Assembly: GCA_032161105.1 (NCBI GenBank) | Contig: JAVHTD010000001.1 | DNA from: Candidatus Thermosaccharophagus tengchongensis | Lineage (GTDB): Bacteria > Armatimonadota > Fervidibacteria > Fervidibacterales > Thermosaccharophagaceae | Direction: 5' to 3' (one strand) | DNA: 64,000 nucleotides | In this document: positions 45,092 through 64,000 of the stretch, in pieces | How positions within the stretch are numbered: the first letter of the stretch is position 1 | How the letters are laid out: each line of letters opens with the position of its first letter | Translations under genes and position numbers: made by a program | Notes under the pieces: generated by a model | What the model saw: only the letters and a program-made list of their open reading frames with translations | What the model was told of the DNA's origin: nothing | The model's database searches: none

Positions 45092-45385
45092 CACACTCGC
45101 CTCCTTGCACACAGGGTTTTGGGAATTTGGATTGTGAGCGGTTGGAGCTGACTTTGGCAGCTTATGAAGGCGGCGCTTTTAAGGTCTTTAGATGACAGCC
45201 TCATCACTTGTGTTTCAGCAAGGCGCATTAGTTGCATTCTTGAACATGAGAGCAACTGCTAACCAATTTATGGCTTGCCAAAAATCCCACTCATCAAGCG
45301 TTTCTCTTCCCATCATCTGCGGCTTGCGTGCCATCATATTACGGCAGCGTGCAAATTGTAAACGATAGACGGGCAACATTTCTTG

Positions 45386-45451
45386 GGAGGGTGAGGCTCC
45401 AGCCGAACCCAAACTCCGTATTTATAGGCTCACCGGGAGGTTCGCCCTCCC
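45386..45451. repeat. REP-like inverted doublet
   Basis: GGGAGGGTGAGGCTCCAGCCGAACC ... GGCTCACCGGGAGGTTCGCCCTCCC, imperfect inverted arms downstream of pilin-like gene. Confidence 0.65.
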
Positions 45452-45484
45452 TGCGATGTCACTTACAGTGTGCACACCGCCATG

Positions 45485-46186
45485 TTACCAACCTGGTGGG
45501 AAGGAATCGGAGTTAGTCCATGGCAAATATGTGCGCATAGTAGTCCGATCAGGAGCCCAGAACTTCTGGCTTGATATCCACTTAACATGCCCATCAAAGT
45601 AAGCTACATTCACGCCACCACTGTGTGGCTCAATGTAATCGGTTCCGCATCCACCACCCCGCCTCCAAGGGCGCATGCAAGCCCAAACTCCGTCAGCAAC
45701 CATGGCTAAATCGGCAGGGCGTTTGATCTGCGGGAATTTTATGTCCTCCCCCATGTCCGCTGATACAGGGCAATTGAATGCATAACTTGTCCCGTATGGC
45801 TTAACATCCGGTATCCACCACTGGCAATTTACACCACTATTCCGAAGTGTGGTTGGGCAGATAAAAAGATCCCAATTCTTGACATATGGGTGAATTAGAT
45901 GATGAAACCACATCGCAGTGTTCGGATTGTTGCAATAGCTGGGAGAGAGAGCAGCGCCGCGCCATCCGCGAAACTTCTCGTCATAGTCCTGAGCATACAT
46001 CAGGACGCCCAATGCAATCTGCTTCAAGTTGGCTTGACATTTTGCCGTCCTTGCCTTCTCCCTTGCCCTCGCAAACACAGGAAACAGTATTGCTGCCAAG
46101 ATGGCGATTATCGCTATCACCACCAGCAGCTCTATCAGCGTAAAACCTCTCCACCTCAACCTAAGCATTCCAGCTGCTCGCTTCAT
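45485..46186 (-). CDS. Prepilin-type N-terminal cleavage/methylation protein with H-X9-DG motif (DUF1559-like)
   Basis: [33 protein letters not shown]...[20 protein letters not shown]. Confidence 0.93.
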
Positions 46187-46438
46187 TTCACATCCCTCCT
46201 TTGAGTTTAAAAACATCGTGTGGAGATTGTGGGGCGGACGATAGTCCGCCTCACATCGTTCCTCAGTTGTGAACTCGGACAGCTGCCCCTGCGAACTTTC
46301 ACTGCATCACCTCCTTCGGTGTGAGATTGACCCCGTTCAGAAAACCCAACTCCCACAACCCAACTTTGGCACAGCGCAATTTGATTGTAAAGTCTCACAT
46401 TGCAATCTCGTCAAACGACATCAATTGAGCAAGGCATT

Positions 46439-46851
46439 GTTCGTAGTAAGCCACAAAGCGGAGTGGCGTCATCATGACATCGCTCGTAGTAAGCCACGAA
46501 GCGTTAGCGAAGTGGCGTCCATCATGACATCATTGACGGCACTTCACTTCGTTTCGTGCCTTACTACGAACCTCACAACCGTTCGTAGTAAGCCACGAAG
46601 CGTAAGCGAAGTGGCGTTCATCATGGCATCGTTGACAGCACTCCACTTCGTTTCGTGCCTTACTACAAACCTCCGCCACAAAGCGAAAGTGGCATCCTCA
46701 TAACATCGTTCGTAGTAAGCCACGAAGCGTAAGCGGAGTGGCGTTCATCATGGCATCGTTGACGGCACTCCACTTCGTTTCGTGCCTCACTACGAACCCC
46801 ATAATCGTTGTAAGCCACGAAGGGAAAGCGAAGTGGCGTCCTCATGGCATC
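46439..46851. repeat. Cluster of 90-bp palindromic REP-doublet (REPIN/BIME-like) units
   Basis: Full units 46482-46571, 46581-46670, 46708-46797 (GTTCGTAGTAAGCCAC...GTGCCTYACTACGAAC) plus partial left halves. Confidence 0.85.
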
Positions 46852-46875
46852 AGAACTTTTGAATTACATCTTGAC

Positions 46876-48354
46876 TCACCTTAATCTTTGTATGAACCAA
46901 CTTGCGTGTCTGTCGTATGTTTCAAATGGGTCGTCCATGATGAACCATTGCCTTTCGTTGAACAGCCCGCACACAAGCGAAATGCAGTCCCATTCAATGA
47001 TGTAATTTGTCACGCCGCGCCTTATGAGCTCCCTTATCACTCGGCTGCGCGCATAAGCCCTTGTGTTGCGCGGGGGATGCAGCATTGCCTCCTCAATTTT
47101 CTCGTCAGTGGTGACGCGCGTGGCGCTGCCGTTTCGCTGGAGCACATAGAACAAGCCCTCGCTTGGGTTGATGTTGTGATACTCCAAGTCAATGCTGAAT
47201 AGGGCATCATCGTTCCAGTCAATTCCTTCGGCATCCATATACAGCTGCAGCATCTTAAGTTTGGTCACCCAATCAAGCTTGCCCGAAAGCTGCATTGGGT
47301 CTTCCTCAAGCTTATCCAGAACATACTCCCACTCTCGTATTATCCAGTCCGTCTCCATATCCCTGCCGAGCAGGTTGCGTTTTGCGGCTTCAAGATATTG
47401 CCTTTGGATGTCAATAGCCGATATCGTTGTCCCTTCTCGCAATGTTGTTATCCAGCGCCAGCTCATATCTCGTGAAATCTCGCGCAGCGATTTTATCGGA
47501 TGGGCGAGTTCAATTGTCGGCGCACACTTCATTTCAATCAAGTCAAGCACGAGTGCCGTCGTCCCAATTTTTAAAGCCGCTGCATACTCTGAGACATTTG
47601 ATTCTCCGAAGAGGAGGTGAAGGCGCGTGTAGCGTGAGAAGTCATGATAGCTGTCCCACTTCGGGTTTATAAGCCCGCGATTGAAGCGCACCCTGCCAGA
47701 GACAACATGCAGTATATGATCGGCACGCTGCGAAAGTTGAAACTTCACATCCGGGTCTGGCTTCACCTCATATGCGAAGTCCACAAACACATAGTCAATG
47801 TCATGTGAGGCAAATGGGCGTCTTGAGCGCTTTGTCGGGATGAGCTTATGTCCACCAACCCTTCCGGCACCGGCAAATATTTGCCTTGTGACCAAGAAAG
47901 CTACAAGCGGTTGCAACGCCTTCCGTGAAAAGTATTGGTCTGGGCGGAGTGAATAGTTTTCATGGCAGCCGAATGTGTGCCCGCCAAAATGGTCAATGCT
48001 GTTGTTGTGGAAGCTGACTTTGCCCTCCAAACCGAGCTCCTCAATTGCCCGGCAGATTATCCTCTGCCCGGCTTTGTCGTATGCGACTATGTCAAACACG
48101 GAGCGGCATTCCGGGGTAGCATACTCCTCGTGAGAACCAACCGCATCAATGTATAGCCTACCGCCATTTATCAGGAAGCCACCCGAGCGAGCCGGCTCAA
48201 AGAATGGGTCTCTAACATGCCAGTCAAGCAGCCCCCACTTGTTTTCCTTGAAGATGGCATCTTTTACCAACTCAACAACTTTCTCTGGCGGTCCGAGTGA
48301 TGGATCTCTCACAAAGCATCCGAATTCCGTCTCAATGCCGAATACCCTCTCCAT
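46876..48354 (-). CDS. pafA: Pup/UBact-protein ligase (PafA family)
   Basis: GIETEFG, NGGRLYIDAVGSHEEYATPEC, GCHENY, SQRA, RLH, LDWVTK, DLEYH. Confidence 0.88.
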   Translation of the reverse strand: MERVFGIETEFGCFVRDPSLGPPEKVVELVKDAIFKENKWGLLDWHVRDPFFEPARSGGFLINGGRLYIDAVGSHEEYATPECRSVFDIVAYDKAGQRIICRAIEELGLEGKVSFHNNSIDHFGGHTFGCHENYSLRPDQYFSRKALQPLVAFLVTRQIFAGAGRVGGHKLIPTKRSRRPFASHDIDYVFVDFAYEVKPDPDVKFQLSQRADHILHVVSGRVRFNRGLINPKWDSYHDFSRYTRLHLLFGESNVSEYAAALKIGTTALVLDLIEMKCAPTIELAHPIKSLREISRDMSWRWITTLREGTTISAIDIQRQYLEAAKRNLLGRDMETDWIIREWEYVLDKLEEDPMQLSGKLDWVTKLKMLQLYMDAEGIDWNDDALFSIDLEYHNINPSEGLFYVLQRNGSATRVTTDEKIEEAMLHPPRNTRAYARSRVIRELIRRGVTNYIIEWDCISLVCGLFNERQWFIMDDPFETYDRHASWFIQRLR

Positions 48355-48691
48355 GATGCTCTCATTCCCTATGGCTCAAGAGAGTTAATCAATCCGCGAG
48401 CGTTTGGGTTGCGACCGCACAGGCATTGCAAGCGATATGGCACACATGCAAGCAACTGCCTTCAGCTTGCCCCCTTGCGCTATCAGAATTGACCCCATTT
48501 GCCCGCCGCAAAACTCAGCTAACCATTATAACTCTCGGTGTCCTACGGGTGATAACCCAAAGGTGGCAATAAAGTGCCATGAGTGTGGTGTGGCTTGCAT
48601 CGTCGGATTATCCCGAGGGTGCATCATCTGCGTGTCAACATGGCATCTGAGGAGCGATCTATTCCCTCACAATGTGCTTCCTCTCCTTGAG

Positions 48692-49486
48692 TCACGCCGA
48701 AAGGCTTGAGAGCACCATTTCAACTCGCTCATCGGTGAGCATCTTGAATCGTCTCTCACTCACTGAATGCCGTTCAAGCAGGGCAGCTTCAACTTTCCCA
48801 TCCCTCAGGCTACGCTTCAATGCATCAATGAGCGTCTCCGAGGTGGGTTTGCACCCAGCCTCATCTCCAGAAGGCGCGCCGCTATCAGCTTTAACCTTTC
48901 CGAGTGCCCATGCCATCAAAGCAACTTGCAATGCCTCATCCAAAGTTGCATCGCCCAACTTCAGGTGCTCCTTGACGAATCGCTCCATCTCCGCTTCAAC
49001 CTCAACGACGCCAGCAATGGCTGCGACTTGCTCACGCTGCACAAACTCGCCATCGTAGTTGAGCACGATGAATGTATCCTCACCAATGCTTTCTCCAACC
49101 TGCGCAAACAGCCCTCGCACGACAAACGGCGTTCTGAATGGGTCGCTAAATGCCCTTCTAACATTCGGACTCACTGAGAAGCCAACCACCCTCTGTATTG
49201 AAACATCCTCCGGGCTGCGCTGGAAACCCTCAACATGGGCAAAGTCAACTGCGAGCATCCTTATGGCTTCAATGTCGGCTTGCTGACCGATGGCTGCAAA
49301 TGCGAGCCTGTCATACACCTCGTAAATTTTTCGCTGCGAGCCGCGCACAGTCGCAATTAGCACACCAAAGCCGCAACTAACACCAATTACAGGGCTGCCG
49401 AGGCGAAGTCTGTCCTCAACATAATCAGCCTTCTGACGAAGCATCTGTGCCCAATCGTAAGGTGTGTAAACCATGACCTGACTCAT
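48692..49486 (-). CDS. prcA: 20S proteasome alpha subunit
   Basis: TPYDWAQMLRQKADYVEDRLRLGSPV, RKIYEVYDR.AFAAIG, VEAALLER; next to pafA. Confidence 0.88.
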   Translation of the reverse strand: MSQVMVYTPYDWAQMLRQKADYVEDRLRLGSPVIGVSCGFGVLIATVRGSQRKIYEVYDRLAFAAIGQQADIEAIRMLAVDFAHVEGFQRSPEDVSIQRVVGFSVSPNVRRAFSDPFRTPFVVRGLFAQVGESIGEDTFIVLNYDGEFVQREQVAAIAGVVEVEAEMERFVKEHLKLGDATLDEALQVALMAWALGKVKADSGAPSGDEAGCKPTSETLIDALKRSLRDGKVEAALLERHSVSERRFKMLTDERVEMVLSSLSA

Positions 49487-49607
49487 ACCCTCACTTTATC
49501 GTGGGTTCGCAATCTCGTTCCTTCCCAACAAGCCCGGTTCATCCCATCATACAACTGTAGGAGGCAGCTTTAGCTGCGACAAGCTTATCCAAACCATGGG
49601 AATAGCT

Positions 49608-51146
49608 TTAACCGCGCCAGACTTGTGCATCCGAATTATGGCAGACAGCTCGCTTTGTCTCAAGTTGGCTTTCTGAAATGAATTCTTCCAAGGTGCATCC
49701 AAGCACATCAACTGCGGCTTGCTTATATGCGCCAAATGAGCCGCCGTTTAATAAAGCCCTCTCAATGACGCTCAATACACGCCTATCGCCGATTGAAAAC
49801 AGAGCTTGCAGCTGGCTTGCGCGAATGCTCTCAACCGATAATTTTACACGCTCAATGCCCTTGAGTGCCCTCGTAAGCAAATTGCGCTTCCTTTCCAATT
49901 CATCGCTTGGTGCCATTCCTAACCTCTCAAATGGCGTGCCGCGCTTTGGAACGAATGCACATGCACTGACTGTAAAACGCAACCGTTTGAAGCGCCTCAC
50001 TAACGAGCGCATAAATTCACCGATGGCGATGATGTCCTCGTTTGATTCCCATGGTAAGCCGAACATGAAGTAGAGTTTGATGGAGCGCATCCCGTATCTC
50101 TCAGCAAGTGCTGCAGCCCTGAAGAGATCCTCATCCTTTATCGGTTTGCCTATTGTCGCCCTCAGCTTTTCGGTGCCTGTCTCTGGCGCAATGGTCATGC
50201 TCATTGTGCCACTCTGGCTGAGCGCTGCAACCAACCCCTCTGGCAAAACATCGGCGCGCATTGATGAGACGCTTAACCTTAAGCCATCATTAACGACTGC
50301 CCACGCAATGCGCTCAATGTCTGGGTGCGCCGAAACGACAGCGCTTACCAACCCAACTGAGTTGAGCGTTTGCCTGTAGCGCCTGATCAAGTTGAGCACT
50401 TGCTCAGCCGTGAAATGCCTTGCCGGGTAGCAGCAATTGCCGTATGCGCAATAGTGGCACCTGAATGAGCACCCGCGAGCAACCTCAATGAGGAATGTGT
50501 CAGCGAACTCAGTTGAGCTCGTAAGGGCAATTGAGTGTGCTGGCTCAATTTGTTTAACATCGGCGAACACAGGTGCTGTTGGATGAGCCATAAGCTGTGG
50601 GACATACATACCCTTGACTTCGGCAAGCTCTTCCCATGCACGCACTCTATCATGCGCCGTTATGGCTTTCTCAGCAGCTTGCACAAGCTGCGGCATTATG
50701 ACCTCGGCATCTCCCATGGCGATGGCATCAAATAAGTCGGCAAGCGGTTCAGGGTTGATTGTCAGTGCAGTTCCACCGCCAATGACTAATGGCTCAAGCG
50801 GCTTTCGCTCACTCGCCCTCAAGGTTATGCCGCTGCTCAATAGCGCACGAACGATGTTTGGATAATCACCCTCAAACGGAACCGAGAAGGCAATGATGTT
50901 GAACGAGGATATCGGTGCGTTGCTTTCAATCGCCCTTATTGGCTTGCTCTGGTCGCACATTAATGCATCTACGAATGCCCTCTCACAGCTCACAGCGCAT
51001 TCGTCACTTGCAATTCGCAACACAGCATGCACGCCTAAGTTTGACATCCCGACAAAGTAGGTATTCGGATAGACGAGGACGATGCGTAACCTGCCGGGTT
51101 TGCGCGAACGCATTAACCAGCGTTCACTCGTTGAATGCATGTGCAC
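49608..51146 (-). CDS. Radical SAM protein (B12-binding-like N-terminus)
   Basis: YPNTY.VGMSNLG, EVARGCSFRCHYC (CxxxCxxC), APETG, KLYFMFGLP. Confidence 0.9.
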   Translation of the reverse strand: MHMHSTSERWLMRSRKPGRLRIVLVYPNTYFVGMSNLGVHAVLRIASDECAVSCERAFVDALMCDQSKPIRAIESNAPISSFNIIAFSVPFEGDYPNIVRALLSSGITLRASERKPLEPLVIGGGTALTINPEPLADLFDAIAMGDAEVIMPQLVQAAEKAITAHDRVRAWEELAEVKGMYVPQLMAHPTAPVFADVKQIEPAHSIALTSSTEFADTFLIEVARGCSFRCHYCAYGNCCYPARHFTAEQVLNLIRRYRQTLNSVGLVSAVVSAHPDIERIAWAVVNDGLRLSVSSMRADVLPEGLVAALSQSGTMSMTIAPETGTEKLRATIGKPIKDEDLFRAAALAERYGMRSIKLYFMFGLPWESNEDIIAIGEFMRSLVRRFKRLRFTVSACAFVPKRGTPFERLGMAPSDELERKRNLLTRALKGIERVKLSVESIRASQLQALFSIGDRRVLSVIERALLNGGSFGAYKQAAVDVLGCTLEEFISESQLETKRAVCHNSDAQVWRG

Positions 51147-51474
51147 CCCTAATCACCCTTGCAGACTCGGTTGAATTTGGAACCCTCAAATTGCATCACC
51201 AGGTTGACAGTTTGGCTCACTGTATTGCAAGTAAACTTATCGCCCTACAGATAACTGATGCAAGCCTGAATGGATGCTGTGCTTCGGGGCTTTACAAGCA
51301 CATTGAGTTGTGTCATAGTCAATTAAGGCAAGCGAAATATTGTAGCAACGGATGTAATGCCCATAAGGGGAGGTGATGAAACAGGATTGAGATTTAAGGG
51401 CGACATTAAAGCGCGATCGCTCTGAGGCGACAGAGGGGCGTTTAATCAAGCTAATCCAAGGGAGGGATGCAAGG

Positions 51475-52239
51475 ATGAAACTCGCGAATGGAAGGTCAAG
51501 GGGCTTCACACTGATAGAGCTGCTGGTGGTGATAGCGATTATCGCCATCTTGGCAGCGATTCTGTTCCCGGTGTTTGCGAGGGCAAGAGAGAAGGCTCGC
51601 ACGGCTGCCTGTCAGAGCAACATAAAGCAGATACTGCTCGGAATAAAGATGTATGTTGAGGACTACGATGGACGCTTCCCCGGAGCAAGGTATAGACCAC
51701 CTGGTCTGCCGCAATATACATGGCGTGCGGTTGTCTTCCCATATGTTAAGAATGAGCAAATTTTTGTGTGCCCATCAAACCCCAATCTCTTTCAAGAGAC
51801 AGGCGATATCGCTGGCAATTACGCGGTATCAGCATGGATGTTTTGCTCCATTCAATGTGATCCTGCAAGGAATATGAGGGTGAGCCAGCTCATCCACGGG
51901 ACTTACAAACCCGGAAGTAGTTTTTGGACGAATGTGCCACAGGCAACGCCGAACGGTCCGTCGCAGATGATTATCATTACCGAGGTTGGACCCGGGTGCG
52001 GGCACATTGACTTTAGTGGGCACTTCAGATGTGGTGGCAGTAACGCATGGTTTGCTACACGCCCATTCACTGGGCACCTTGGTGGGGCAAACTTTGGCTT
52101 TGCTGATGGACATGTCAAGTGGATGAAGTGGCTACAGACATTCTCACCAATTTTTATGTATCCAGCAGATTGTTGCAGCGATACAAACTACTACAACATG
52201 TTCAACCTGCATCCCGATGTGATAAAGGCAATACAGTAG
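51475..52239 (+). CDS. Prepilin-type N-terminal cleavage/methylation protein with H-X9-DG motif (DUF1559-like)
   Basis: [48 protein letters not shown]. Confidence 0.93.
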
Positions 52240-52399
52240 TTGGTTGAGAATGCGCGCTGTTGGTTGGTAACTTGGGGAGAGATGATGCAGGTGTAAGGAG
52301 GGGTGCACTATCCCCATCAGGAAGAGGTTATGGTATAGTGTTATCACTGTATGCATAGCAGGTGTGCTTTCATTTGCTAATCACTTCAGCAGCCGTGTA

Positions 52400-52939
52400 A
52401 TGGAAAACCTTAAGAAGGACGAGGTGAATGAACAAGCCCTGCTCTCGGGCAAAAGCGATGAACGCTGTTGTGGGATGCAGTGGAAGATATACATCGGGAA
52501 GAAGTTGTCAGATTCCGAACTATACAAAATGTGGGTTTACCCAGTGAAGCAGGAGCATGAACGAACGCTCCCGTTTTTGAAGCCGGTGGAGGTTTATGGC
52601 AATTTAAAGGCGCGCATTTGCATTAGGGCATTCTATCCCTTCCACCGCGGTCATGAGCACTTCAAAGATTACTTCAAGAGCCTCGCTGAGCGTTACTATC
52701 CGCGCTTAAGGGTTGAGTGCATAAACTTCGGAACGCCATCTGGGTTCAAGCTGTTCCGAAAAGAGGGGCTATCGTGTGGAGCTGTTATACTTCAGGCGTA
52801 TCCGCAGGCTAAGGCGAAGTTTGGTGAAGTTGAATTACCTATAGTTTTTGAAGGTCCGATGGATGCGGCATGGCAAAGGAGCGATCTGGAATCGCTCGTA
52901 GGGATGCTCACCAGTTATGAGGTATCGCAAGGCAAGTGA
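52400..52939 (+). CDS. Hypothetical protein, possibly thioredoxin-like fold; start uncertain
   Basis: ORF with globular-protein composition; no CxxC. Confidence 0.55.
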   Translation: MENLKKDEVNEQALLSGKSDERCCGMQWKIYIGKKLSDSELYKMWVYPVKQEHERTLPFLKPVEVYGNLKARICIRAFYPFHRGHEHFKDYFKSLAERYYPRLRVECINFGTPSGFKLFRKEGLSCGAVILQAYPQAKAKFGEVELPIVFEGPMDAAWQRSDLESLVGMLTSYEVSQGK

Positions 52940-54112
52940 AAGCGCGTTTTCCACTGTGCCTATCGCATCTCCGTAAGTGAGTAAGGGCGAAATTGCAATG
53001 CATCATCATAGACGCTATAGATTGCGCACCATCAAGCGTGCGCTATGCAGCCATGAGTTTATCCCTGAGAGGCGAGCTTTCCGCCCGCCCAATCTTCACC
53101 TTACATGCTCCCCGATGTGCGTGTTGCATGATGAGCAATTGAGCTGTGGCTTTCGTTTGCATGGGATGGTTGGAGCATCGGTTAATGATTCATTCCGGAA
53201 GCGAAGTTGAGTCAGCTACTGATGGCTTTCAGAATAACCCCGCTTGAAGCTGCATAGCTGCCCTGTGGGAACGCCGCGCCGCATCGGCGTCGTGAAGCAC
53301 AGTTCCAACGATGAGCACTCAGCATAGGTAACTCCCGTATAGATGCGTTGTCAGTGCGAGGCGCTGCAGCGAACAGCATGCATCAAGATGTGGAGAGCCC
53401 CATCAAGTTGTGGTATGAACTTGAAAAAATTCGTAGCACACATTAATGTGAATCATCACCGACATTGCGCATGTGGGAGAAGCATTAGGACGCTCATTGA
53501 ACCTCAATCATGTTCGCCGTTGAGGGTCATTGCTTCGTTGAGTGTGCGTTCCTCAATTGAGCCATTCCCAATTGAAGGAACTGCAGAGTGAGTTGAAGCT
53601 CAATTTATGCCTGTGTGTCTTAACCTCGGTGTCAAGCAAATTTTGCTGTGTGCTGCTCCTCTGGAAACTTGAATTCATTCCTCAAAGGCAATGGAAGAGC
53701 TGGCAGCAATAGGGAGAAGTTTGCCAATCATACATACGCTCAAATTGGTCACACAAAAGTGGGCAAATTCTTGGTGTGATAGTGTTGTCTTTTGTTCACC
53801 ATACCTTGCAGTGGGATTTTTAAAAATATGGGACAAAAAATGGCAATTATGTTTGATGGTTTGGATTTATGAAATTGGGTCCATTTTTGGATTTTTCTGG
53901 AAATTTTGGATGATGACAACGGTGCGGGTATTTTCCAAAATTTCCCGACCTTCTGGCAAATTTCCCAACCCGGCATCGTTTCCCGTTTATTTCACTATTT
54001 CACACAAAAATTTGGATTCGTAACATCATCACCATGTTTAGCAACAGTGAAATCCAAATTTAAAAACATCAACATGATTCTGTCAACAGCTATTTTAATC
54101 CGGATTTTGGGG

Positions 54113-54141
54113 TTGACAATCACCACGAATTTGGCTATAAT
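54113..54141 (+). promoter_or_regulatory. Consensus sigma70 promoter
   Basis: TTGACA (54113-54118), 17-nt spacer, TATAAT (54136-54141). Confidence 0.85.
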
Positions 54142-54223
54142 TAAACATGAAGCCGGATGTGCTGATGGTAGGCAGAATTGCCATAGTGCATCCTACACCA
54201 TCACATGGAAAGGGGGTGCTAAC

Positions 54224-54277
54224 ATGGCGAAGAAGGCAGCACCAAAGAAGAAGGCAGCGCCGAAGAAGAAGAAGTAG
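54224..54277 (+). CDS. 17-aa lysine-rich microprotein MAKKAAPKKKAAPKKKK
   Basis: AAGGGGGTG SD then ATG 54224; TAG at 54275-54277; own promoter and terminator. Confidence 0.7.
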   Translation: MAKKAAPKKKAAPKKKK

Positions 54278-54294
54278 CAATTAAAGCCGTAATT

Positions 54295-54340
54295 GGGGGG
54301 CAGTTGGCACTTGCCTGTGCCACTGCCCCCTTAACATTTT
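54295..54340 (+). terminator. Intrinsic terminator-like hairpin between microprotein and convergent parA
   Basis: GGGGGCAG(T)TGGCAC-ttgcct-GTGCCACTGCCCCC followed by TTAACATTTT. Confidence 0.75.
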
Positions 54341-54384
54341 ACCGGCTCTTTTGCGAAATTCTCCCAAATACTTTTCACTGATAT

Positions 54385-55260
54385 TTAGCAACCCTCGCCT
54401 CCAGATTGACCAAAAGGCTTTTGGTGGGTTGGTGGAGAGGGTAATTGAATTTCCCCCTGTAACTCGCCCGCTAAAGGCGTGGCGGTTTCCCTGACTTCAC
54501 CCAACCTTTCAAGCACTTCTTGGGCGAGTTGGCGATACGCTGCTGCTGCCACATTGCGGCTGTCGTAGTAGATAATTGGCAAGCCATGACTTGGAGCTTC
54601 GCTTAAGCGCACCGTCCTGGGTATGATGGTTCGCAAGACCCAATGCTGGAAGTGCTTTTCAACTTCCTCAGAAACCTGTGAGGCGAGGTTGGTGCGCGTG
54701 TCATACATTGTGCGGAGTATACCGAGCACAAGCACCGACGGATTCAAACTCATGCGAACCTTCCGTATCGTGCTCAGGAGATTTCCCAAACCCTCAAGCG
54801 CGTAATATTCACACTGAATTGGGATGAGGATGTAATGTGCGGCGGTGAGACAGTTGACCGTGAGCAAACCCAACGATGGTGGCGAGTCAAGGATGATGAA
54901 ATCGTAGTTAATGACGAGCGGTTGCAGCGCCCGATGTATCATGAATTCCCTTTCTTCAAGTTGGCTCAGCTCAATCTCAGCTCCAGCCAAGTCAATGTCA
55001 GACGGTATGATATCAAGCCGCGCAAAACGAGTATGCTTGACAGCTGCCCCGGGTTCGACGAAACCGGCAAGCACATCATAAAGTTGCGGGCGTGCGGCTT
55101 GCCTCGGGATGCCGATACCGGAAGTGGCGTTGCCTTGTGGGTCTGCGTCTACGAGTAAGACGCGTTTGCCAATCTCAGCCAAGCATGCACTTAGGTTTAT
55201 TGCCGTCGTCGTTTTCCCTACGCCGCCCTTTTGGTTGACGATTGAAATGACTATCCCCAC
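54385..55260 (-). CDS. parA: ParA/Soj family ATPase
   Basis: NQKGGVGKTT, DADPQGNAT, DSPPSLG, QCEYYALEG, LSEAPSHG. Confidence 0.95.
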   Translation of the reverse strand: MGIVISIVNQKGGVGKTTTAINLSACLAEIGKRVLLVDADPQGNATSGIGIPRQAARPQLYDVLAGFVEPGAAVKHTRFARLDIIPSDIDLAGAEIELSQLEEREFMIHRALQPLVINYDFIILDSPPSLGLLTVNCLTAAHYILIPIQCEYYALEGLGNLLSTIRKVRMSLNPSVLVLGILRTMYDTRTNLASQVSEEVEKHFQHWVLRTIIPRTVRLSEAPSHGLPIIYYDSRNVAAAAYRQLAQEVLERLGEVRETATPLAGELQGEIQLPSPPTHQKPFGQSGGEGC

Positions 55261-55410
55261 AACAGCTGCCTACCCCGCTTTCACTGTGCGCAGTGACTTT
55301 CACAACGCACGCTGTTTGCAATATGACATTTTATCCCTCTCCACACTTCATGTCACCAGCGCGCATAATTGCAACATGCAATTCACATTAGAGGTGCAGG
55401 GGCAGGAAAG

Positions 55411-56172
55411 ATGGGTGAGGGCAATCGCTGGTCTCATCTTCTCACGAGCTTGAAGGATGTGCTTCACAAGGGCTTTCATGCCGTGCTCAGGTTGCTTTAT
55501 CCGCCACGCTGTCTTGTGTGCGGTTCGCTATCCGAGGAGGTGCTTTGCAGGGGATGTTTTGCGCAACTCAAATTTATCAAACCGCCGATGTGCGACCTCT
55601 GCGGAAAGCCATATGACGAGCTTGCTCACGCTGCGCCCATATGTTCCGATTGCAGGAACACAAAGCGATGGTTTGACCGATGCAGATGCGCTGTCAGGTA
55701 TGAGGGTGTCGCACGGGAGATGATCCACAAGTTCAAGTATGGCGGCGAGAGGCGGCTTGCATCGGAGATGGCGAGGCTTATGGTTGAGATTCTGAACGAC
55801 TTCCCGCTCCAGATTGAGTTAGTGATCCCAGTGCCGTTGCACAGCAAGAGGCTGCGAGAGAGGGGATTTAATCAATCGGAGTTGATTGCGGAGCTGTTAT
55901 CAGAACGGGTTAATGTGCCGATGAACTCATCCTTATTGATTCGCATAAGGGAAACAAAGCCCCAGTTTGACCTTGAGCCGAGGGAGAGGTTAAACAATGT
56001 GCGAGGCGCATTTGAGCTCGTTGAAGCGAGTGCTGTGACTGGCAAGGTTGTCCTCATCGTTGATGATGTAATGACTGTCGGGGCGACATTGAATGAATGT
56101 GCGAGAGCGCTCAGGAAAGGAAAACCAAGAGCAGTGTATGCAGCTGCGTTTGCGAGGGCAGTCGGAATGTGA
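55411..56172 (+). CDS. comF: ComF family protein (double zinc ribbon plus PRTase)
   Basis: LYPPRC..C, VPLH..RL.ERGFNQ, VDDVMTVGAT. Confidence 0.92.
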   Translation: MGEGNRWSHLLTSLKDVLHKGFHAVLRLLYPPRCLVCGSLSEEVLCRGCFAQLKFIKPPMCDLCGKPYDELAHAAPICSDCRNTKRWFDRCRCAVRYEGVAREMIHKFKYGGERRLASEMARLMVEILNDFPLQIELVIPVPLHSKRLRERGFNQSELIAELLSERVNVPMNSSLLIRIRETKPQFDLEPRERLNNVRGAFELVEASAVTGKVVLIVDDVMTVGATLNECARALRKGKPRAVYAAAFARAVGM

Positions 56173-56375
56173 ATTGCATACCTGTTGCATGGCGATCCAA
56201 GTTGAGGAAGCCACTTCCCCGGGGGCTGCTCACGCAAGCTGCAATCGGTGTGGACTTATAAACCGTAGGCAATTCATGTTGGGCATATGTGTTGCAGCTA
56301 CGAAGTTAATTCGGGCTGGCTATACGGGTTGAGGCTTTGTGAGTTTGGTGCGATCCAATTGGTTGGAGGCGATAA

Positions 56376-57350
56376 ATGATGGCTGTGCGCATCGGCTTTA
56401 TAGGTTCAGGTGGGATAGCCCGTTTGCACATGCAGAACCTGAGCAGGATTGAAGATGTTGAGTTGGTTGCGTTTTGCGATGTCGCAATTGAGCGTGCAGT
56501 GGAGTGCGCAAACCAGTATGGTGGTAGAGCATACGACAACCATGCCGAGATGTTTGAGAAGGAAGAGCTTGATGCAGTTTACATTTGCATTCCTCCGGGA
56601 GCGCATTCCGACCAAGAGGTTATGGCTGCTCAAGCGGGCGTGCACATATTCGTTGAGAAGCCGATAGCGCTAACACTTGATGCTGCCGAGAGGGCGCTCA
56701 ATGCGATCAAGAGCGCCGGCGTGATAAACTCCGTCGGATACCACTTTCGCTACCTTGACACCACTGACATCGTCAGAGAGAGGTTAGCTGAGCAAACTGT
56801 GGGCATGGTCTTGGGCTATTGGATGGGCGGCTTACCGGGAACACCTTGGTGGAGGCGCATGGAACAATCTGGTGGGCAGATTGTGGAACAGACGACGCAC
56901 ATATTTGACCTTGCAAGATACATTGTGGGCGAGATAACACATGTGTGCGCTGCAGCTGCCCTCCGTGCATTGCACGATGTGCCGAATCTCAATGTGCCTG
57001 ATGTCGGCGCTGTGCTCGTTTGGTTTGAGAACGGTGCCATCGGATGCATCTCAAACACATGCATGCTGAGGAGGGGTCACAGGGTCGGGCTTGATGTCTT
57101 TTGCCGTGACATGGTCGTTGAGCATATGGGTGGAAGCGTCCGCTTCATTTACCAGCAGAGGGTTGAGGAGATTAGCGCGACAAGAAATGGGCATGCATAC
57201 GAATCGGAGGTATTCATCAGGGCTGTTAAGGAAAGGAATCAATCGCTCATACGGTGCGATTACGAAGATGCGGTTAAGACGCTCGCAGTTACACTCGCCG
57301 CCAATGAATCCATCCAGAAAGGTATGAGGGTGAATGTGCCAACGCTTTAA
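56376..57350 (+). CDS. Gfo/Idh/MocA family oxidoreductase
   Basis: GFIGSGGIA, EKP, GG..VEQTTH..D. Confidence 0.93.
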   Translation: MMAVRIGFIGSGGIARLHMQNLSRIEDVELVAFCDVAIERAVECANQYGGRAYDNHAEMFEKEELDAVYICIPPGAHSDQEVMAAQAGVHIFVEKPIALTLDAAERALNAIKSAGVINSVGYHFRYLDTTDIVRERLAEQTVGMVLGYWMGGLPGTPWWRRMEQSGGQIVEQTTHIFDLARYIVGEITHVCAAAALRALHDVPNLNVPDVGAVLVWFENGAIGCISNTCMLRRGHRVGLDVFCRDMVVEHMGGSVRFIYQQRVEEISATRNGHAYESEVFIRAVKERNQSLIRCDYEDAVKTLAVTLAANESIQKGMRVNVPTL

Positions 57351-57383
57351 AATTGCTGGCTGCCAAGATGGCAATGATGGGTA

Positions 57384-58178
57384 TTACCACATCACAAGGT
57401 TCTCGTGTGACTTTCTAAGGATGATCGGACCATCAGGTGGCACCCTGAGCAGGTTCCACTTATACCACTTCACATGCCCATCGGCGAATGCAATGTTGCA
57501 GCCACCAAGATGTCTTGGACCCTTCTCATCCGTCATCTTATCTGCGATGACAGTATTTGGATTGCAGCATCCACCGAATGCATCTCCTCTCGCATTGAAG
57601 TTTGCGAAGACTATACGGGCGAGAAAGCCACCAGGATCCCAGCCTGTAAGGGAAGAGCGCCCATCGGCAAGTAGCAGGGTCTGAGCAGGAAGCCTGATAC
57701 TGGCTAAACGGTTGAAATTGCAGCAATTGGCAGATATCGGCTCATTGTAGGTATAGCTGAAAGGCCACCTGTCATACTTGCAGTCTGAGCAGCACATCCG
57801 CCCTAACGGCCCACCATCGGGACACCTTGTATCAGATGGACAGAGATAGAGCTCTCTGTTCTTAACATAGGGATAGATAGCTGCATACCAAGGCAATGGG
57901 GTGCTCGGACCCTGCCCATGCACCGGTGGGTTCCCGCGGTCTCTACCCCACTCCCAGTTCGGGAAACGCTCATCGTAATCTTGCGCATAGGCAAGCAGCG
58001 CAATCGCTAACTGCTTCAGATGGCTCTGACAAGTTGCACTTCTTGCCTTCTCCCTCGCCCTCGCAAACACCGGGAACAACACTGCTGCCAGGATAGCGAT
58101 AATCGCTATCACCACCAACAGCTCTATCAGTGTGAAGCCTATTGAACTTACCTTAAGCCTTCCGACTATGTGCCTCAT
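57384..58178 (-). CDS. Prepilin-type N-terminal cleavage/methylation protein with H-X9-DG motif (DUF1559-like)
   Basis: [48 protein letters not shown]. Confidence 0.93.
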
Positions 58179-58341
58179 TTCGCATCCCTCCCTTGAGTTT
58201 ATTTTGAACACATCGCGAGATTGACTTCACTTAGAAAGCTCTAACTCCCGTAACCTAACTTTGGTGCAGCGTAAGTTGTTTGTAAAGTCTAACATCTCGC
58301 TCTTGTCAAACGCCATCAGCTGAGCAATGATGCGATGCACC

Positions 58342-58593
58342 GTTCGTAGTAAGCCACGAAGCGAAAGCGAAGTGGCGTTAATCATGGCATCATTGACGGC
58401 ACTCCACTTCGTTTCGTGCCTCACTACGAACCTCGCAATCGTTCGTAGTAAGCCATGAAGCGATAGCGGAGTGGCGTTAATCATGACATCGTTCGTAGTA
58501 AGCCACGAAGCGAAAGCGAAGTGGCGTTTGTCATGGCATCATTGACGGCACTTCACTTCGTTTCGTGCCTCACTACGAACCTCGTAATCGTTC
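58342..58593. repeat. Second cluster of the same 90-bp palindromic REP-doublet units
   Basis: Full units 58342-58431 and 58491-58580, half unit 58441-58490. Confidence 0.85.
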
Positions 58594-58633
58594 AAAGTGC
58601 ACGGAGCAATCCAGTGTGCGGAGGGTGGTGCGC

Positions 58634-61360
58634 TTATTGCAACTCCCAAACTTCGTTTAAGGCGGGTGCGATGCATTTCCAACCGCGCACGGTTAGCATC
58701 TGCTGAAGTGCCGTTAATGCATTTACCTCGCCGTGCACAACGAATGTGCATCTTGGTGGTTGCCTGAAGGAACCAAGCCACCAGTCAAGATCTTCCTGAT
58801 CGGCATGCCCGCTTAGCGCCTCTATCTTTGCAACCAGCGCTTTCACTTCATGATGTTCTCCAAATATGCGCACGCTTTTCTCGCCGTCCAAGATTTGCCT
58901 TCCAAGAGTCCCCTGAGCCTGGTAACCAACGAAAAGTATCGTGCATCTTGGGTCGCCAATGTGGTGCTTGAGGTGATGTTTTATTCTCCCGCCAGTGCAC
59001 ATGCCATTTCCAGCGATGATGACGCATGGTTCATCAAGCGTGTTGAGCATCTTTGACTCCTCAACGGTTGAGAGCAGGTGCAAGCCTTCAAATGAGAGCG
59101 CCTTCCCATAACGCCTTAAGTCACCGAGCGCATCCTCATCGTAAAGTTCAATGTGGCGTTCAAAAACCCTGAGCGCCTCAATTGCCATTGGGCTATCAAC
59201 GAAGACGGGCAATGGTTTAACCGCGCCGCTCCTGAACAACTTGCCGAGCACATAAAGGACATCCTGAGCGCGCTCAATCGCGAATGTCGGGATCAGCAAT
59301 TTGCCGCCGAGTTCCCTCGTGCGCTCAATCACCTCGGTGAGCGTTTGCAGATAGGTCTCTTTACCCTCATGGATTTGCCCCGCATATGTTCCCTCGGTGA
59401 TGAGCACATCGCATTGGCTCACGAGCTCTGGGTCTCTGATGATTGGCGCATTGCGCCTGCCCAAGTCACCAGTGTAAACGAGCTTCACCTCAGCGCCGTT
59501 CAATCTGAGATTAAGCTCGGCTATTGCCGAACCAAGGATGTGCCCCGCCTCTCGCAGTGAGATTGAGACACTGCCAATGGTAACTTCCTCATGGTAGTCA
59601 ATCGGCTCAAAGCGCTCAATGCATCTAAGCGCCTCCTCGGTGGTGAAGAGCGGCGTCACCCATGAGTAATCCTCCCCAGCCTTCTTGAGGCGCTTTATCT
59701 TCCACGCGGCGTCCTCTTCGTTAAGCTTTGCGCTGTCAAGGAGCACGATTCGGGCGAGTTCGCAAGTTGCCCTTGTGGCAAGTATGCGCCCTTTAAACCC
59801 AGCCTTCACGAGCAGCGGCAATCTCCCGCAATGATCAAGATGTGCGTGTGTCAACAGGCATGCATCAACCCTTGAGGCATCAAATGGGAATGGCTCCCTG
59901 TTGCGGATGTGCCTCTCCTTGCCTCCCTGTATCAAGCCGCAGTCAAGCAGGAGGTGAGTATTTCCTGAAACAAGCAGGTGGCATGAACCTGTTACTTCCA
60001 TTGCAGCACCGCAGAATTGCAATTTTGCGCTGACGCCTTTCTGGCTGTGCGCGTGGGTGGACATGGGGAGTTTGTGGGCATCCTGAGCAGCTGGCTCTTT
60101 GCTCGGTCTTTGCTCGGTCTCATTCATTGCAGTGCTGCGATAACTCAGCAGGGCATAAGCGGCAGCTTTAAAAAGCTGCGGGATATAATTGCGCTGCTTA
60201 ATGAGCATCCAAACTGAAAGCGAGATGTAGGACATGGTGAACACCATCCTCATCATCCCAACAGATTGCGGATCGTGGAGCACCGCTGGCAATGAGAGTT
60301 GTGCGGCAAACAGGGTGAAGAGCAAAGCCGCTTCACCGATAGTTATGTCAAAGCTCATGAGGATGGCACACCCAAAGAGCGACTGCGCCGCTGTGAGCAA
60401 TATCTCGCTCCTTTGGAGTTCAACTAACGGGAGCGATTTTATGGCTCCGCTTGAGATGCTGTAGACGATTGGGAGCGAGCTGATGAGGAGCGTCCACTGG
60501 TTGAATTTCGCGGATATGACGGCGGTGAGCGCTGAAGCTGGCAAAGCGCGCAGGGCAAAATATGAGGCAACGATGAGCTCAGGGGCTTCGGAAGCTACAG
60601 GGGCAATCCATTGTATCATGAAGAACTCACCGATACCAAGTAGCTTGCCCAACTCCCTCAAGCTCTCGGAGAGTGGCTCAGCCGAGATGAATATGACAAA
60701 ACCGCTAAACGCAAACAGCAGGAGCACAAGTATATGCCTCAGGAGTGGCTTCATTGAGGCAATCAGTTGTGCTGGTCCGATGAGCTCAACATTTCCCTTT
60801 GGTGCGCGAGCAGCGAAGCTTATGTAGGCGCAATAAAGCCCAACCAGTATGAGTGCATCAAGCGGTGATATGGCTCTTCTGATTGGCAGCGTAAACGAGT
60901 AAAGCGTAGCCAAGCTGAGGAAGGAGATCTCAAGCGCCATGCCTCTGTCAAGCGGCACCGAGAAGCTTTTGATGCCCTTTAGGCGCTTCAATGAATGCCA
61001 AGCGAGCAGCGCCGTTAAAGACCAACCTATGCCTATTAGGAGCCTGTTACCGCCAGTCATGTTTGCGCACGCAAGCCCGATGTATTCGCTATTCCTACCG
61101 GCACGCCATGAAAGGTAAATGTCAACGGCGTATTCTGGCATAACTGTGATGAGCGAGAGCACAGCGAGCGACAGTGAGCGTGAGACATCAACTTGAGCCG
61201 CTTCAGCAGCCCATGAGATGGTAAGGGCAGCGCCAGCAATAGCTATCGCTGCCAATAGGGCGAGGTAGGCATGGGGCAAATGAATGTTGAAAAGACGCAC
61301 ATAGCACCCCGGCAGCGTTATGAGCAAAGCCGCGATCAACATGAATGTGTTGCGCCTCAT
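58634..61360 (-). CDS. Fusion of CaCA-type (Na+/Ca2+ exchanger family) antiporter and MBL-fold beta-CASP ribonuclease
   Basis: N-half multi-TM with alpha-repeat-like PEYAV and SEAPE; C-half GAAMEVTGS, THAHLDH, GHILGS, GDLG, SGHAD, VHGE. Confidence 0.85.
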   Translation of the reverse strand: MRRNTFMLIAALLITLPGCYVRLFNIHLPHAYLALLAAIAIAGAALTISWAAEAAQVDVSRSLSLAVLSLITVMPEYAVDIYLSWRAGRNSEYIGLACANMTGGNRLLIGIGWSLTALLAWHSLKRLKGIKSFSVPLDRGMALEISFLSLATLYSFTLPIRRAISPLDALILVGLYCAYISFAARAPKGNVELIGPAQLIASMKPLLRHILVLLLFAFSGFVIFISAEPLSESLRELGKLLGIGEFFMIQWIAPVASEAPELIVASYFALRALPASALTAVISAKFNQWTLLISSLPIVYSISSGAIKSLPLVELQRSEILLTAAQSLFGCAILMSFDITIGEAALLFTLFAAQLSLPAVLHDPQSVGMMRMVFTMSYISLSVWMLIKQRNYIPQLFKAAAYALLSYRSTAMNETEQRPSKEPAAQDAHKLPMSTHAHSQKGVSAKLQFCGAAMEVTGSCHLLVSGNTHLLLDCGLIQGGKERHIRNREPFPFDASRVDACLLTHAHLDHCGRLPLLVKAGFKGRILATRATCELARIVLLDSAKLNEEDAAWKIKRLKKAGEDYSWVTPLFTTEEALRCIERFEPIDYHEEVTIGSVSISLREAGHILGSAIAELNLRLNGAEVKLVYTGDLGRRNAPIIRDPELVSQCDVLITEGTYAGQIHEGKETYLQTLTEVIERTRELGGKLLIPTFAIERAQDVLYVLGKLFRSGAVKPLPVFVDSPMAIEALRVFERHIELYDEDALGDLRRYGKALSFEGLHLLSTVEESKMLNTLDEPCVIIAGNGMCTGGRIKHHLKHHIGDPRCTILFVGYQAQGTLGRQILDGEKSVRIFGEHHEVKALVAKIEALSGHADQEDLDWWLGSFRQPPRCTFVVHGEVNALTALQQMLTVRGWKCIAPALNEVWELQ

Positions 61361-61635
61361 CTGCGATCACCATGGATTTGCATTTCCAGTTTCCAGCCAA
61401 ACCCCACACCGCTCAAAGGATGACGAGATGGTATAGAGGCTGCCCGATTGAGAAAACAACTGTGGCGCACCAAATCGCATGCTCATGATAACACGGTATC
61501 GCTGTCGGCTCAAACTGCCGTTGACATTGCTTGGAGGGATTTTGGTGGCATCTCATTGCCTTTGCCATTAGACTTTGATAGCGATGCATTCTGTTGAATT
61601 CGGTTACTTCGCCGTGTTGAGGGAGGTGAAGGTGA

Positions 61636-63507
61636 ATGTCAACTTCATTGGTTGAAACCCCAAGGGCGAGGGGCTTTTGGGGTTGGGTGAGAAGCAGTGT
61701 GAGGCGAAGGTTCACATTTCAAGTCTTCCTCGCATCATCTGTAACCATGTCTGCATTCTTCATCGTCATGTTGCTCCTTCAACGCCACCTGTTAAATGCC
61801 GTCATCTCCTATGCTCCAGCGGATGTGATCTCGGGGATAAGCATGAAATTGGTCAGCGCCATGCTCCTTGGTATTGTGCTTGTCGTGCTCATTGTGACAC
61901 TTCTCGTTTGGGGCATGGCACAAGCCATTGCAAGCCCAGTTGAGGAAGTCGCAAAGCAGCTCTCTTCCATAGCACAGCATGGTGGTGACCTGACACAGGA
62001 GGTGCGAGTTCCGTCGGCTGATGAGATATGGCTGTTGGCTGAGGCATACAATGCTTCGGCGAGGAGTTGGCGCGAGCGTGTAAGGAGGGTAGCCCACACA
62101 GTGGGCGGGCTCGTCTCAGCCAGCAATGAAGTATCTCGGTCTGTTACGGAGACTTTGCACGCAAGTCAAGAGGTGGCGAGGATTGCGGGTGAATTGCTTG
62201 ACGGGGCTCAGAAGCAGCTGCAAAGCGTTGAATGGACATACGGGGGCGTTCGGCACATGCTGTCAACAATTGACGGTTTGATTTCGGATGCCGAGCGCCA
62301 AATAGCGCAAGCCGAAGACATGGCGGAGAATGTTAAGCGAACGCTCGCTTCAATTGATGACATCGCCGAAGGCGCTGAGGAGCAGCGCAATGCCATTGAA
62401 ATAGCAGCTGCCAAAGTGATGGAAGTGACGGAGTTAGCAGGTGAGGTTAGCAAAAGCGCTCAAGCTCAGGTTGAGAGCGTCTCCGATGTGACGCGCAGGA
62501 TAAAAGAGATGTCGGAAGCTATAGCGCGAGTTGTCTCAACATGCCAAAGGGTGACGGAGAGTTCAAATCAGGCGTTGTCCGTAGCTGAGCAGGGCTACAA
62601 AGCAGTTGATGAAACAGTTGAATCAATACTTCGGTTGCAAGATGGTGTTGGCGTTTGGGCAAAGGAAGTGATGGAGCTCGGGCAGGCAGTCGGACGCATC
62701 GGTGAGATACTCTCCGTCATTGAGGACATATCTGAGCAGACAAACCTCCTTGCGCTCAATGCCGCAATTGAAGCTGCAAGGGCTGGTGAGCATGGGCGCG
62801 GCTTTTCCGTTGTCGCAAGCGAAGTTAGGGGGTTAGCTGAGAGGGCGCATCAGGCAGTGAGGGAGATCGCCGAGCTAATAAGCACGATACGGAGTGAAGC
62901 TGAGGAAGCCGTCGTATCAATGCAGCAAGCCGTTACCCAAGTTGAGGAGGGCGTTGGGCTCGCGAAGCGAGCGGGCTTGGCGCTTCGTGAGATAGTTGAG
63001 GCTGTTAGGGGGACAGCCCGTCAAATGGATGAAATCACGCAAGCCGCCTCGGTGATGGAAAGAAGTGCCGAGATGGCTGTTAGCGCTATGGATAGCATTG
63101 CAACCGTTGCAAGGCAAAGCGCAGCAGGTATGCAAGTGATGTTATCTCACACGGCGGAGATAAGCGTTGCCATGCACAACATCGGTGAGATAGCGAAGCA
63201 GCATACCGATGCGGCGCAAGCCCTTAAGGCTGAGAGTGAGACGAGGATCAGCCAGATTGAAGGCATCGCCAAAATAGTTGAGCAGAATAAGGAAGCGATG
63301 GAAAGGATGCGCAAGATGGCATTAGAGGTGAATCAAGCCCTTGAGAGGGTGGCTCAAATTTCAAATCAGACAGCCGAGGGCGCAACACGCATCTCGGCAG
63401 CCACAAGGCAACAGGTGGAGGCGCTTGAAGGCATACAAGCTGCAGCCAATAATGTAGCTCAGATAGCGGCACACCTGCAAAGCTTCACCAGCCAGTTTAA
63501 AGTGTGA
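61636..63507 (+). CDS. Methyl-accepting chemotaxis protein
   Basis: Two TMs, HAMP (GDLTQ...DEI), [31 protein letters not shown]. Confidence 0.95.
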
Positions 63508-63525
63508 TGGAAAGGCACTTGAGCA

Positions 63526-64000
63526 ATGACGATGCCACAAGGTCAGTCAACGCAAGATCAAACGCCCGATAGGGGAATCGTCTCGGCTTCGGGATGCGTT
63601 TTTATGCTCTCGTTGAGTGCGCTCTCATTTGAGGTTGCCCTTACGCGCCTGTTCTCGGTGGTGCTTCATTATCATTTCAGCTTCCTATCCATATCGCTCT
63701 CACTTTGCGGGCTCGGCATCGGTGGCTATCTCGCTCATATCGTTAAGCGCAGCGGGAAAACTGATATTGCATCCCTGCCGATCATCCTCTCCCTTTATCC
63801 GATATGCCTCGTGCTTGTCCCTGTTGGGTTATTTCGCCTTCTGCTCCCAATCGGTGCTGCAATGGAAGGCGCTATGGCGATTATTTTCATCGTCGCCTCA
63901 TGCGGGCTGGTTGCCATGTTGCCATTTCTGTGCGTCGGATTCGCCTTAAGCGTTTTGTTTGAGCGACACCATCAAAGCAGTGGCATCCTGTATGCCGTTG
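63526..64000 (+). CDS. Membrane protein, 3'-truncated; resembles N-terminus of spermidine-synthase-like membrane fusion proteins
   Basis: Translates MTMPQ...LSFEVALTRLFSVVLHYHFSFLSISLSLCGLGIGG; runs off the window. Confidence 0.7.
   Translation, partial: MTMPQGQSTQDQTPDRGIVSASGCVFMLSLSALSFEVALTRLFSVVLHYHFSFLSISLSLCGLGIGGYLAHIVKRSGKTDIASLPIILSLYPICLVLVPVGLFRLLLPIGAAMEGAMAIIFIVASCGLVAMLPFLCVGFALSVLFERHHQSSGILYAV

Follow-up and report, generated by a model that had tools for sequence, protein, structure and literature searches.

A natural fusion of a CaCA antiporter and an MBL/beta-CASP ribonuclease in Candidatus Thermosaccharophagus tengchongensis and its relatives

A single open reading frame encodes an antiporter and a ribonuclease

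Why would a bacterium encode an ion transporter and an RNA-degrading enzyme as one protein? The question is raised by a 64,000-nucleotide stretch of contig JAVHTD010000001.1 (GenBank assembly GCA_032161105.1) of Candidatus Thermosaccharophagus tengchongensis, called the window here, in which a single minus-strand open reading frame (ORF) at 58634-61360 encodes 908 amino acids (aa) with no internal stop. A first-pass annotation made from the sequence alone had divided this ORF into about 400 aa of a CaCA-like transporter, a linker of about 40 aa and a full metallo-beta-lactamase (MBL)-beta-CASP domain with HxHxDH, and this layout was confirmed by Pfam and by matches to the solved structures 4KPP and TTHA0252. 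The ORF is a genuine fusion of an antiporter and a ribonuclease (RNase). Its features are given below, where G000 denotes the genome that contains the window (97% complete; a metagenome-type assembly of 44 contigs) and G001, G002 and G003 are genomes of the same genus.

58634-61360, minus strand: complete ORF of the fusion (908 aa, or 902 aa when begun at Met7, as gene callers of the databases do)
61367-61371, minus strand: Shine-Dalgarno-like GGTGA, six bases ahead of the ATG; likewise in G002 and G003
60140-61360, minus strand: antiporter domain of the CAX_Af type (CaCA), residues 1-407; the model shows 12 long helices and then an extra one at 392-415; C-terminus predicted to be cytoplasmic
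61133-61135, minus strand: E76 of the alpha-1 repeat (PEYAVD), which matches E78 of 4KPP in the alignment
60578-60589, minus strand: E258 and E261 of the alpha-2 repeat (ASEAPE), which match E255 and E258 of 4KPP in the alignment
60029-60139, minus strand: polar linker, predicted to be disordered, residues 408-444; fast-evolving, variable in length and open in all full-length relatives seen
58637-60028, minus strand: TTHA0252-like MBL/beta-CASP ribonuclease domain, residues 445-908
59831-59848, minus strand: motif 2, H505-x-H507-x-D509-H510 (H505-A-H507-L-D509-H510)
58733-58807, minus strand: beta-CASP motif B (H852) to motif C (H876)

Two Na_Ca_ex stretches were recognized by Pfam in the first 400 residues, both over the cut-off (81 bits versus 24.9), and the RNase half contains Lactamase_B (residues 457-644), Beta-Casp (PF10996, 135 bits, residues 698-823) and RMMBL (residues 838-899). 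The best solved relatives by sequence were 4KPP for the antiporter half (residues 3-410, E 7e-97) and TTHA0252 of Thermus for the RNase half (residues 450-895, E 8e-94). An AlphaFold2 model of the fusion protein was built from a 105-row alignment; its pLDDT values were mostly 80-97 in the antiporter, below 50 for residues 408-443 and variable across the RNase, for which the alignment is shallow. Foldseek searches with this model returned 4KPP (E 2e-28, TM-score 0.93, root-mean-square deviation 2.0 A) and TTHA0252 (TM-score 0.72). Promoter and terminator scans stayed at chance level, with 5 found versus 3.6 expected and 4 versus 4.2, respectively.

The fusion recurs in related genomes and independent metagenomes

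A search of 41 genomes identified a full-length, one-frame match without stops in all four genomes of the genus (the window's own and three others), at 67-75% identity. These genes encode 899-912 aa within open frames of 910-944 codons. A protein search gave five clusters with both domains among 63 matches, including P0003 at 81% identity, and a cluster look-up revealed a sixth lineage, P0355, with 930 aa and 61% identity. The linker is crossed by 17 of the 23 cluster members that were compared, and the other six are short sequences that begin or end far from it. Matching DNA occurs in hot-spring metagenomes, and no RNA data set was listed for the stretch. In three runs from three other studies (X3, X6 and X11), single contigs span the linker with 0 gaps; in run X2 overlapping short pieces cover it. 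Of 105 strain-variant base differences, the 40 listed include 37 inside the ORF, none of which creates a stop codon.

Joining of two genes by an assembly or sequencing error might be suspected in a metagenome-type genome of 44 contigs. As the same fusion is present in three other genomes, in two further lineages and in the contigs of three other studies, this explanation deserves next to no credence; the one-frame relatives and the contigs that span the linker refute it. No split, two-gene form was seen in the four genomes or the 23 cluster members. The first-pass annotation had named two adjacent genes with a stop in the linker, or a frameshift or stop in the reads, as observations that would speak against a fusion; instead, the relatives carry one frame and the X3, X6 and X11 contigs pass through the linker without a gap.

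The architecture is confined to one small lineage

When 1.84 billion representative sequences were searched with phmmer, just one of the best 150 matches covered both halves, and this protein (P0006) belongs to the same lineage. A second fusion of equally close halves would have ranked near the top of that list. Among 69 RNase relatives of 813-2320 aa (8000 candidates scored), Na_Ca_ex was found only in the five clusters of the fusion lineage; the remaining 64 long relatives all fall short of four hydrophobic segments, and each of the six fusions shows 4-7 when judged by that threshold. Adjoining unfused antiporter and RNase genes were absent from 117 loci inspected with flanks of 1.5-3 kb, where both halves co-occur in 14 cases, all of them fusions. 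In genome G009 a distance of about 450 kb separates the two genes. The architecture is thus unique within what was searched, and its distribution is limited to one small lineage.

The open-access literature searched contained no description of a CaCA/beta-CASP fusion, and neither an antiporter nor a ribonuclease is mentioned in the main text of the Fervidibacter paper (PMC11535203). The remark of the first-pass annotation that it knew of no described fusion is borne out as far as this literature reaches, and the architecture is apparently undescribed. Both domain families are known, as are membrane-held RNases as a kind; what is new is a whole, intact secondary transporter as the anchor.

Long relatives of the RNase are fused to beta-lactamase plus GNAT, transketolase, LOG/SLOG, M24 peptidase, Zn-dehydrogenase and TPR domains, or are intein-containing KH forms. 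TTHA0252-like RNases therefore fuse readily, and a fusion weighs less as a sign of functional coupling. The recurrent fusions (P0362-P0401, P0088, P0093, P0146 and P0179) also include PF00591, and the beta-lactamase plus GNAT form is one cluster of 1926 members. Two TTHA0252-like RNases carry one strong hydrophobic segment each, arranged as RNase-transmembrane (TM) segment-TPR in P0382 (Planctomycetota by name) and as TM-CBM6-RNase in P0397, and P0206 has a signal-like N-terminus; these three forms are single sequences that could be other membrane-anchored RNases or gene-calling errors. CAX_Af-type antiporters with added domains were observed as well (P0045, P0052, P0055-P0057, P0033, P0043, P0049 and P0058), the added parts being AAA_33 (five clusters), HEAT-type repeats, a PF00481 phosphatase and cytochrome c domains.

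The linker stays open and lacks a conserved internal start

In the six fusions the linker (approximately residues 408-444) consists of 76-92% polar or small residues. Among G000-G003 its identity is 6-17% in five genome pairs and 52% in the closest pair, and no conserved residue or acidic Ca2+-binding motif was found in it among the fusions. Between fixed anchors it spans 49-59 residues, or about 75 in P0355 (some 16 aa longer), and is always open and in frame. When a 41-codon linker was shuffled, the proportion of stop-free versions was 28, 34, 15 and 10% in the four genomes; multiplied together these give about 0.001, a figure that is too strong because the genomes are kin. Across these genomes the linker has no conserved start preceded by a Shine-Dalgarno match, in agreement with the first-pass annotation, which had seen no clear internal ribosome site plus start. 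GGTGA precedes the antiporter start in three of the four fusion genes (G000, G002 and G003); for G001, the first in-frame start was used for this check and not the likely one. Most of ten stand-alone RNase orthologues have a strong G-rich ribosome site before their start. From these sequence features, one full-length polypeptide is likely to be made and to stay whole.

Both halves retain their characteristic residues

All 13 fusion rows and 100% of 91 stand-alone antiporter rows have E76, N100, N105, E258, E261, S283, N287 and Q288, and every polar residue that is invariant in the stand-alone rows is retained in the fusions. We take the aligned glutamates and polar residues to form the ion site in CAX_Af itself. 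The alpha-repeat halves, the conserved polar residues and the fold of the CAX_Af type of the CaCA superfamily were all found. CaCA proteins carry their ions with two alpha-repeat carboxylates (PMC10227063), and the antiporter is likely to exchange Ca2+ for H+ in the inner membrane, an ion pair that rests on its resemblance to CAX_Af, the H+/Ca2+ exchanger of Archaeoglobus fulgidus (PDB 4KPP). Identity to this protein is 46-49% over about 400 aa with the glutamates aligned, but CAX_Af is a stand-alone protein of 394 aa, whereas in the fusion a 464-aa RNase follows the antiporter. The fusions also depart from a few positions conserved in the family, for instance with E replaced by S or N at 318 in 12 of 13 rows and F by L at 230. 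In CAX proteins of the YfkE/VCX1 type, a His (H256 of YfkE) directly follows the alpha-2 glutamate (PMC10227063); no His follows E258 or E261 in the fusion or its counterparts in 4KPP, in an alignment made without YfkE.

The RNase half carries motifs 1-4 (D473; H505, H507, D509 and H510; H607; D632) and motifs A-C (E656, H852 and H876), and all ten residues are invariant in the six fusion lineages. In the definitions given for MBL/beta-CASP proteins, a His at motif C marks the RNA-specific members (PMC3095777). The nearest characterized relative is TTHA0252, the bacterial CPSF-like RNase of Thermus thermophilus (PDB 2DKF), which shares about 38% identity and all motifs, but has 431 aa and no membrane domain. 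TTHA0252 is described as a 5'-3' exoribonuclease, probably also with endoribonuclease activity, whose loss alters 207 transcripts in log phase (PMC4229858). By analogy, the fused RNase would provide a Zn-dependent 5'-3' exo- and endonucleolytic activity in mRNA turnover. Other natural TTHA0252-like fusions, including that with KH in aCPSF1, are similar in that the same RNase core is joined to a lineage-specific second module. Three other identities were considered and rejected: RNase J (TIGR00649, 20.9 bits versus a cut-off of 400), aCPSF1/FttA (TIGR03675, 263 bits versus 580, with a match only from model position 173 and no KH match) and the type VII CRISPR protein Cas14 (NF045584, 389 bits versus 800, model positions 2-425 of 612). 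None of the nine neighbouring ORFs that were scanned belongs to a cas family.

Ratios of non-synonymous to synonymous substitution (dN/dS) among G000-G003 were 0.09-0.18 for the antiporter (five estimable pairs of six) and 0.06-0.10 for the RNase (all six pairs), and synonymous sites were close to saturation. Unfused RNase orthologues gave 0.05-0.19 for pairs with a proportion of synonymous differences (pS) below 0.70. Both halves look functional and are under purifying selection.

Origin of the fusion

Across the order, 22 of 24 genomes (G000-G023) have a single RMMBL-type RNase and none has more than one. In the sister family the orthologous RNase is a stand-alone protein of about 465 aa that shares 52-59% identity with the fused domain in near-full-length matches. 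A quick maximum-likelihood tree of 57 RNase rows, rooted at the midpoint, placed the six fused domains in one clade (SH-aLRT 99), sister to ten stand-alone rows of the sister family (99). The six antiporter domains likewise group as a single clade (99), branching in a way compatible with the RNase tree, close to the stand-alone copy of G009 and other bacterial proteins. The simplest history suggested by these trees is one fusion event on the family stem, in which the inherited RNase was joined to an antiporter gene. Within G000, RMMBL and Na_Ca_ex match nothing but the fusion, which is the sole beta-CASP RNase gene found, and no match to RNase J turned up; the genome additionally encodes an RNase Y, whose N-terminus bears a hydrophobic helix, and a member of the RNase E/G family.

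A proposed membrane-tethered ribonuclease and its alternatives

What does the antiporter do for the RNase? We consider it somewhat probable that the fusion consists of two largely independent modules and that the antiporter holds the RNase at the cytoplasmic face of the membrane. In this view the antiporter would be an inner-membrane Ca2+/H+ exchanger, with the RNase suspended by a flexible tether from its cytoplasmic C-terminus. The enzyme would degrade RNA at that site, next to the TM-anchored RNase Y that the genome also encodes. The loop between TM helices 5 and 6 of CaCA proteins is described as cytosolic (PMC3355786) and, together with the 12 helices of the model, this puts both termini inside. 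Lys plus Arg counts agree, with 17-21 in the predicted inside loops versus 7-11 in the outside loops of the six fusions, and 23 versus 6 in 4KPP. The RNase is thereby likely to lie in the cytoplasm, and the membrane tether that the first-pass annotation had proposed gains support from CaCA topology and the positive-inside bias.

Several decay enzymes are located at the inner membrane, such as RNase Y with a TM anchor (listed in PMC7029143), RNase E with an amphipathic membrane-targeting sequence (PMC12594526) and the RNase J of Helicobacter pylori, a peripheral membrane protein (PMC7492731). These enzymes resemble the proposed arrangement in their location, but their anchors are single helices or partners, whereas the fusion would use a whole transporter with an intact ion site to anchor an RNase of the TTHA0252 subfamily. 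The nearest working analogue is an engineered chimera in which RNase E is anchored by the 12-helix LacY; it is membrane-bound and supports normal growth (PMC12594526). Cytoplasmic RNase E variants are reported to degrade nascent mRNA faster (PMC12594526), and the tethered RNase, because it would be kept at the membrane, may act mainly on finished transcripts, as is reported for RNase E held at the membrane. The protein would then be a natural RNase anchored by a complete secondary transporter, a design otherwise met only as the RNase E-LacY chimera in the literature surveyed. As the sister family has a separate, non-membrane RNase, a ready-made comparison exists for the effect of tethering on mRNA decay, which would also be useful for the little-studied TTHA0252 subfamily.

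Several observations weigh against this explanation. The RNase is soluble in 18 of 20 sister-family genomes and a CaCA gene is present in one of the 20 (ten of which are less than 90% complete or more than 5% contaminated), so that tether and partner are unneeded in close kin. As dN/dS of the RNase is the same whether fused or unfused, there is no sign of a changed role. The many unrelated soluble partners among the long RNase relatives suggest tolerance rather than purpose. M433, 16 codons before the RNase, could serve as a start in two of the four genomes (G000 and G003), although it has no Shine-Dalgarno match; in strain variants it is GTG, which is still a potential start. The main rival to the tethered-module explanation is a locked-in accident: an antiporter gene landed upstream, the intervening stop and the ribosome site of the RNase disappeared, and the frame has since been kept open solely through dependence on the upstream start. 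Proteolytic cleavage of the linker, or initiation at an internal start, would then free the RNase, or else its location would be indifferent. We grant this accident an appreciable but clearly minor chance. It would account for an unconserved linker with predicted disorder, in which the strain-variant differences listed number 12 and change ten codons, eight of them non-synonymously, and it is in keeping with the many unrelated partners in the RNase family, with several C-terminal additions in the antiporter family and with the candidate start at M433. However, the fusion persists down to 61% identity with near-saturated synonymous sites and no split form in sight, an internal start is not conserved, and the primary product is still predicted to be membrane-bound.

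A closer relationship between the halves, with the RNase docked on the cytoplasmic face of the antiporter so that the transport cycle or the local level of Ca2+, H+ or transition metals switches RNA decay, or conversely with RNA or nucleotide binding gating the antiporter, appears unlikely to us. The intact and selected state of both halves would be expected from it, and CaCA members are described as being regulated through cytosolic parts (PMC3355786 and PMC10227063). A weak lead comes from 11 RNase positions at which all six fusions share a residue that none of nine stand-alone sister proteins has (4 in the converse control), including W860 (polar in the sisters), W905, L882, R636 and E679. 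Such residues could make up a contact surface, but common descent also leaves six related sequences with shared residues. A transporter-gated RNase that docks through W860, W905 and L882, with Ca2+/H+ exchange setting the rate of mRNA decay, is just as doubtful. The linker varies from 49 to about 75 residues without any conserved feature and the RNase is constrained as in its unfused orthologues, and the coupling to ion flux suggested by the first-pass annotation is unsupported on both counts. If it were true, control of a nuclease by an ion site would be a new kind of signalling and a direct link from ions or pH to transcript turnover in thermophiles. The same annotation had also considered stress or defence, and a module in which depolarization or Ca2+ influx unleashes the nuclease on stress or phage infection can draw on the general pairing of membrane domains with nucleases and on the likeness to Cas14, which reflects the shared beta-CASP fold. 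PADLOC assigned 0 families to the fusion protein, its MCP and Gfo/Idh/MocA neighbours are the same in three of three related loci, and the RNase is a vertically inherited, single-copy orthologue of the housekeeping-type enzyme of the order. On these grounds a defence system was rejected, and we rate any such role as very improbable.

Neighbouring genes and a repeated element

The fusion gene is divergent from the MCP gene, and the Gfo/Idh/MocA gene converges on it downstream. In G000 alone, a gene with prepilin-type N_methyl and DUF1559 domains (57384-58211) lies between the fusion and the Gfo/Idh/MocA gene and adjoins a repeat cluster; it does not occur at the matching site in three relatives. 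The repeat is a 112-nt hairpin-forming element (approximately -44 to -46 kcal/mol) arranged in tandem-like clusters at 58338-58598 and 46478-46852, and it is absent from the matching loci of the relatives. An Rfam search of 44000-64000 gave only two sub-threshold miRNA hairpin matches, both on the repeat downstream of the fusion. In the G000 genome, 56 BLAST matches form 21 clusters on 12 contigs, mostly in intergenic regions and partly inside long ORFs, and we presume that the element is REP/MITE-like.

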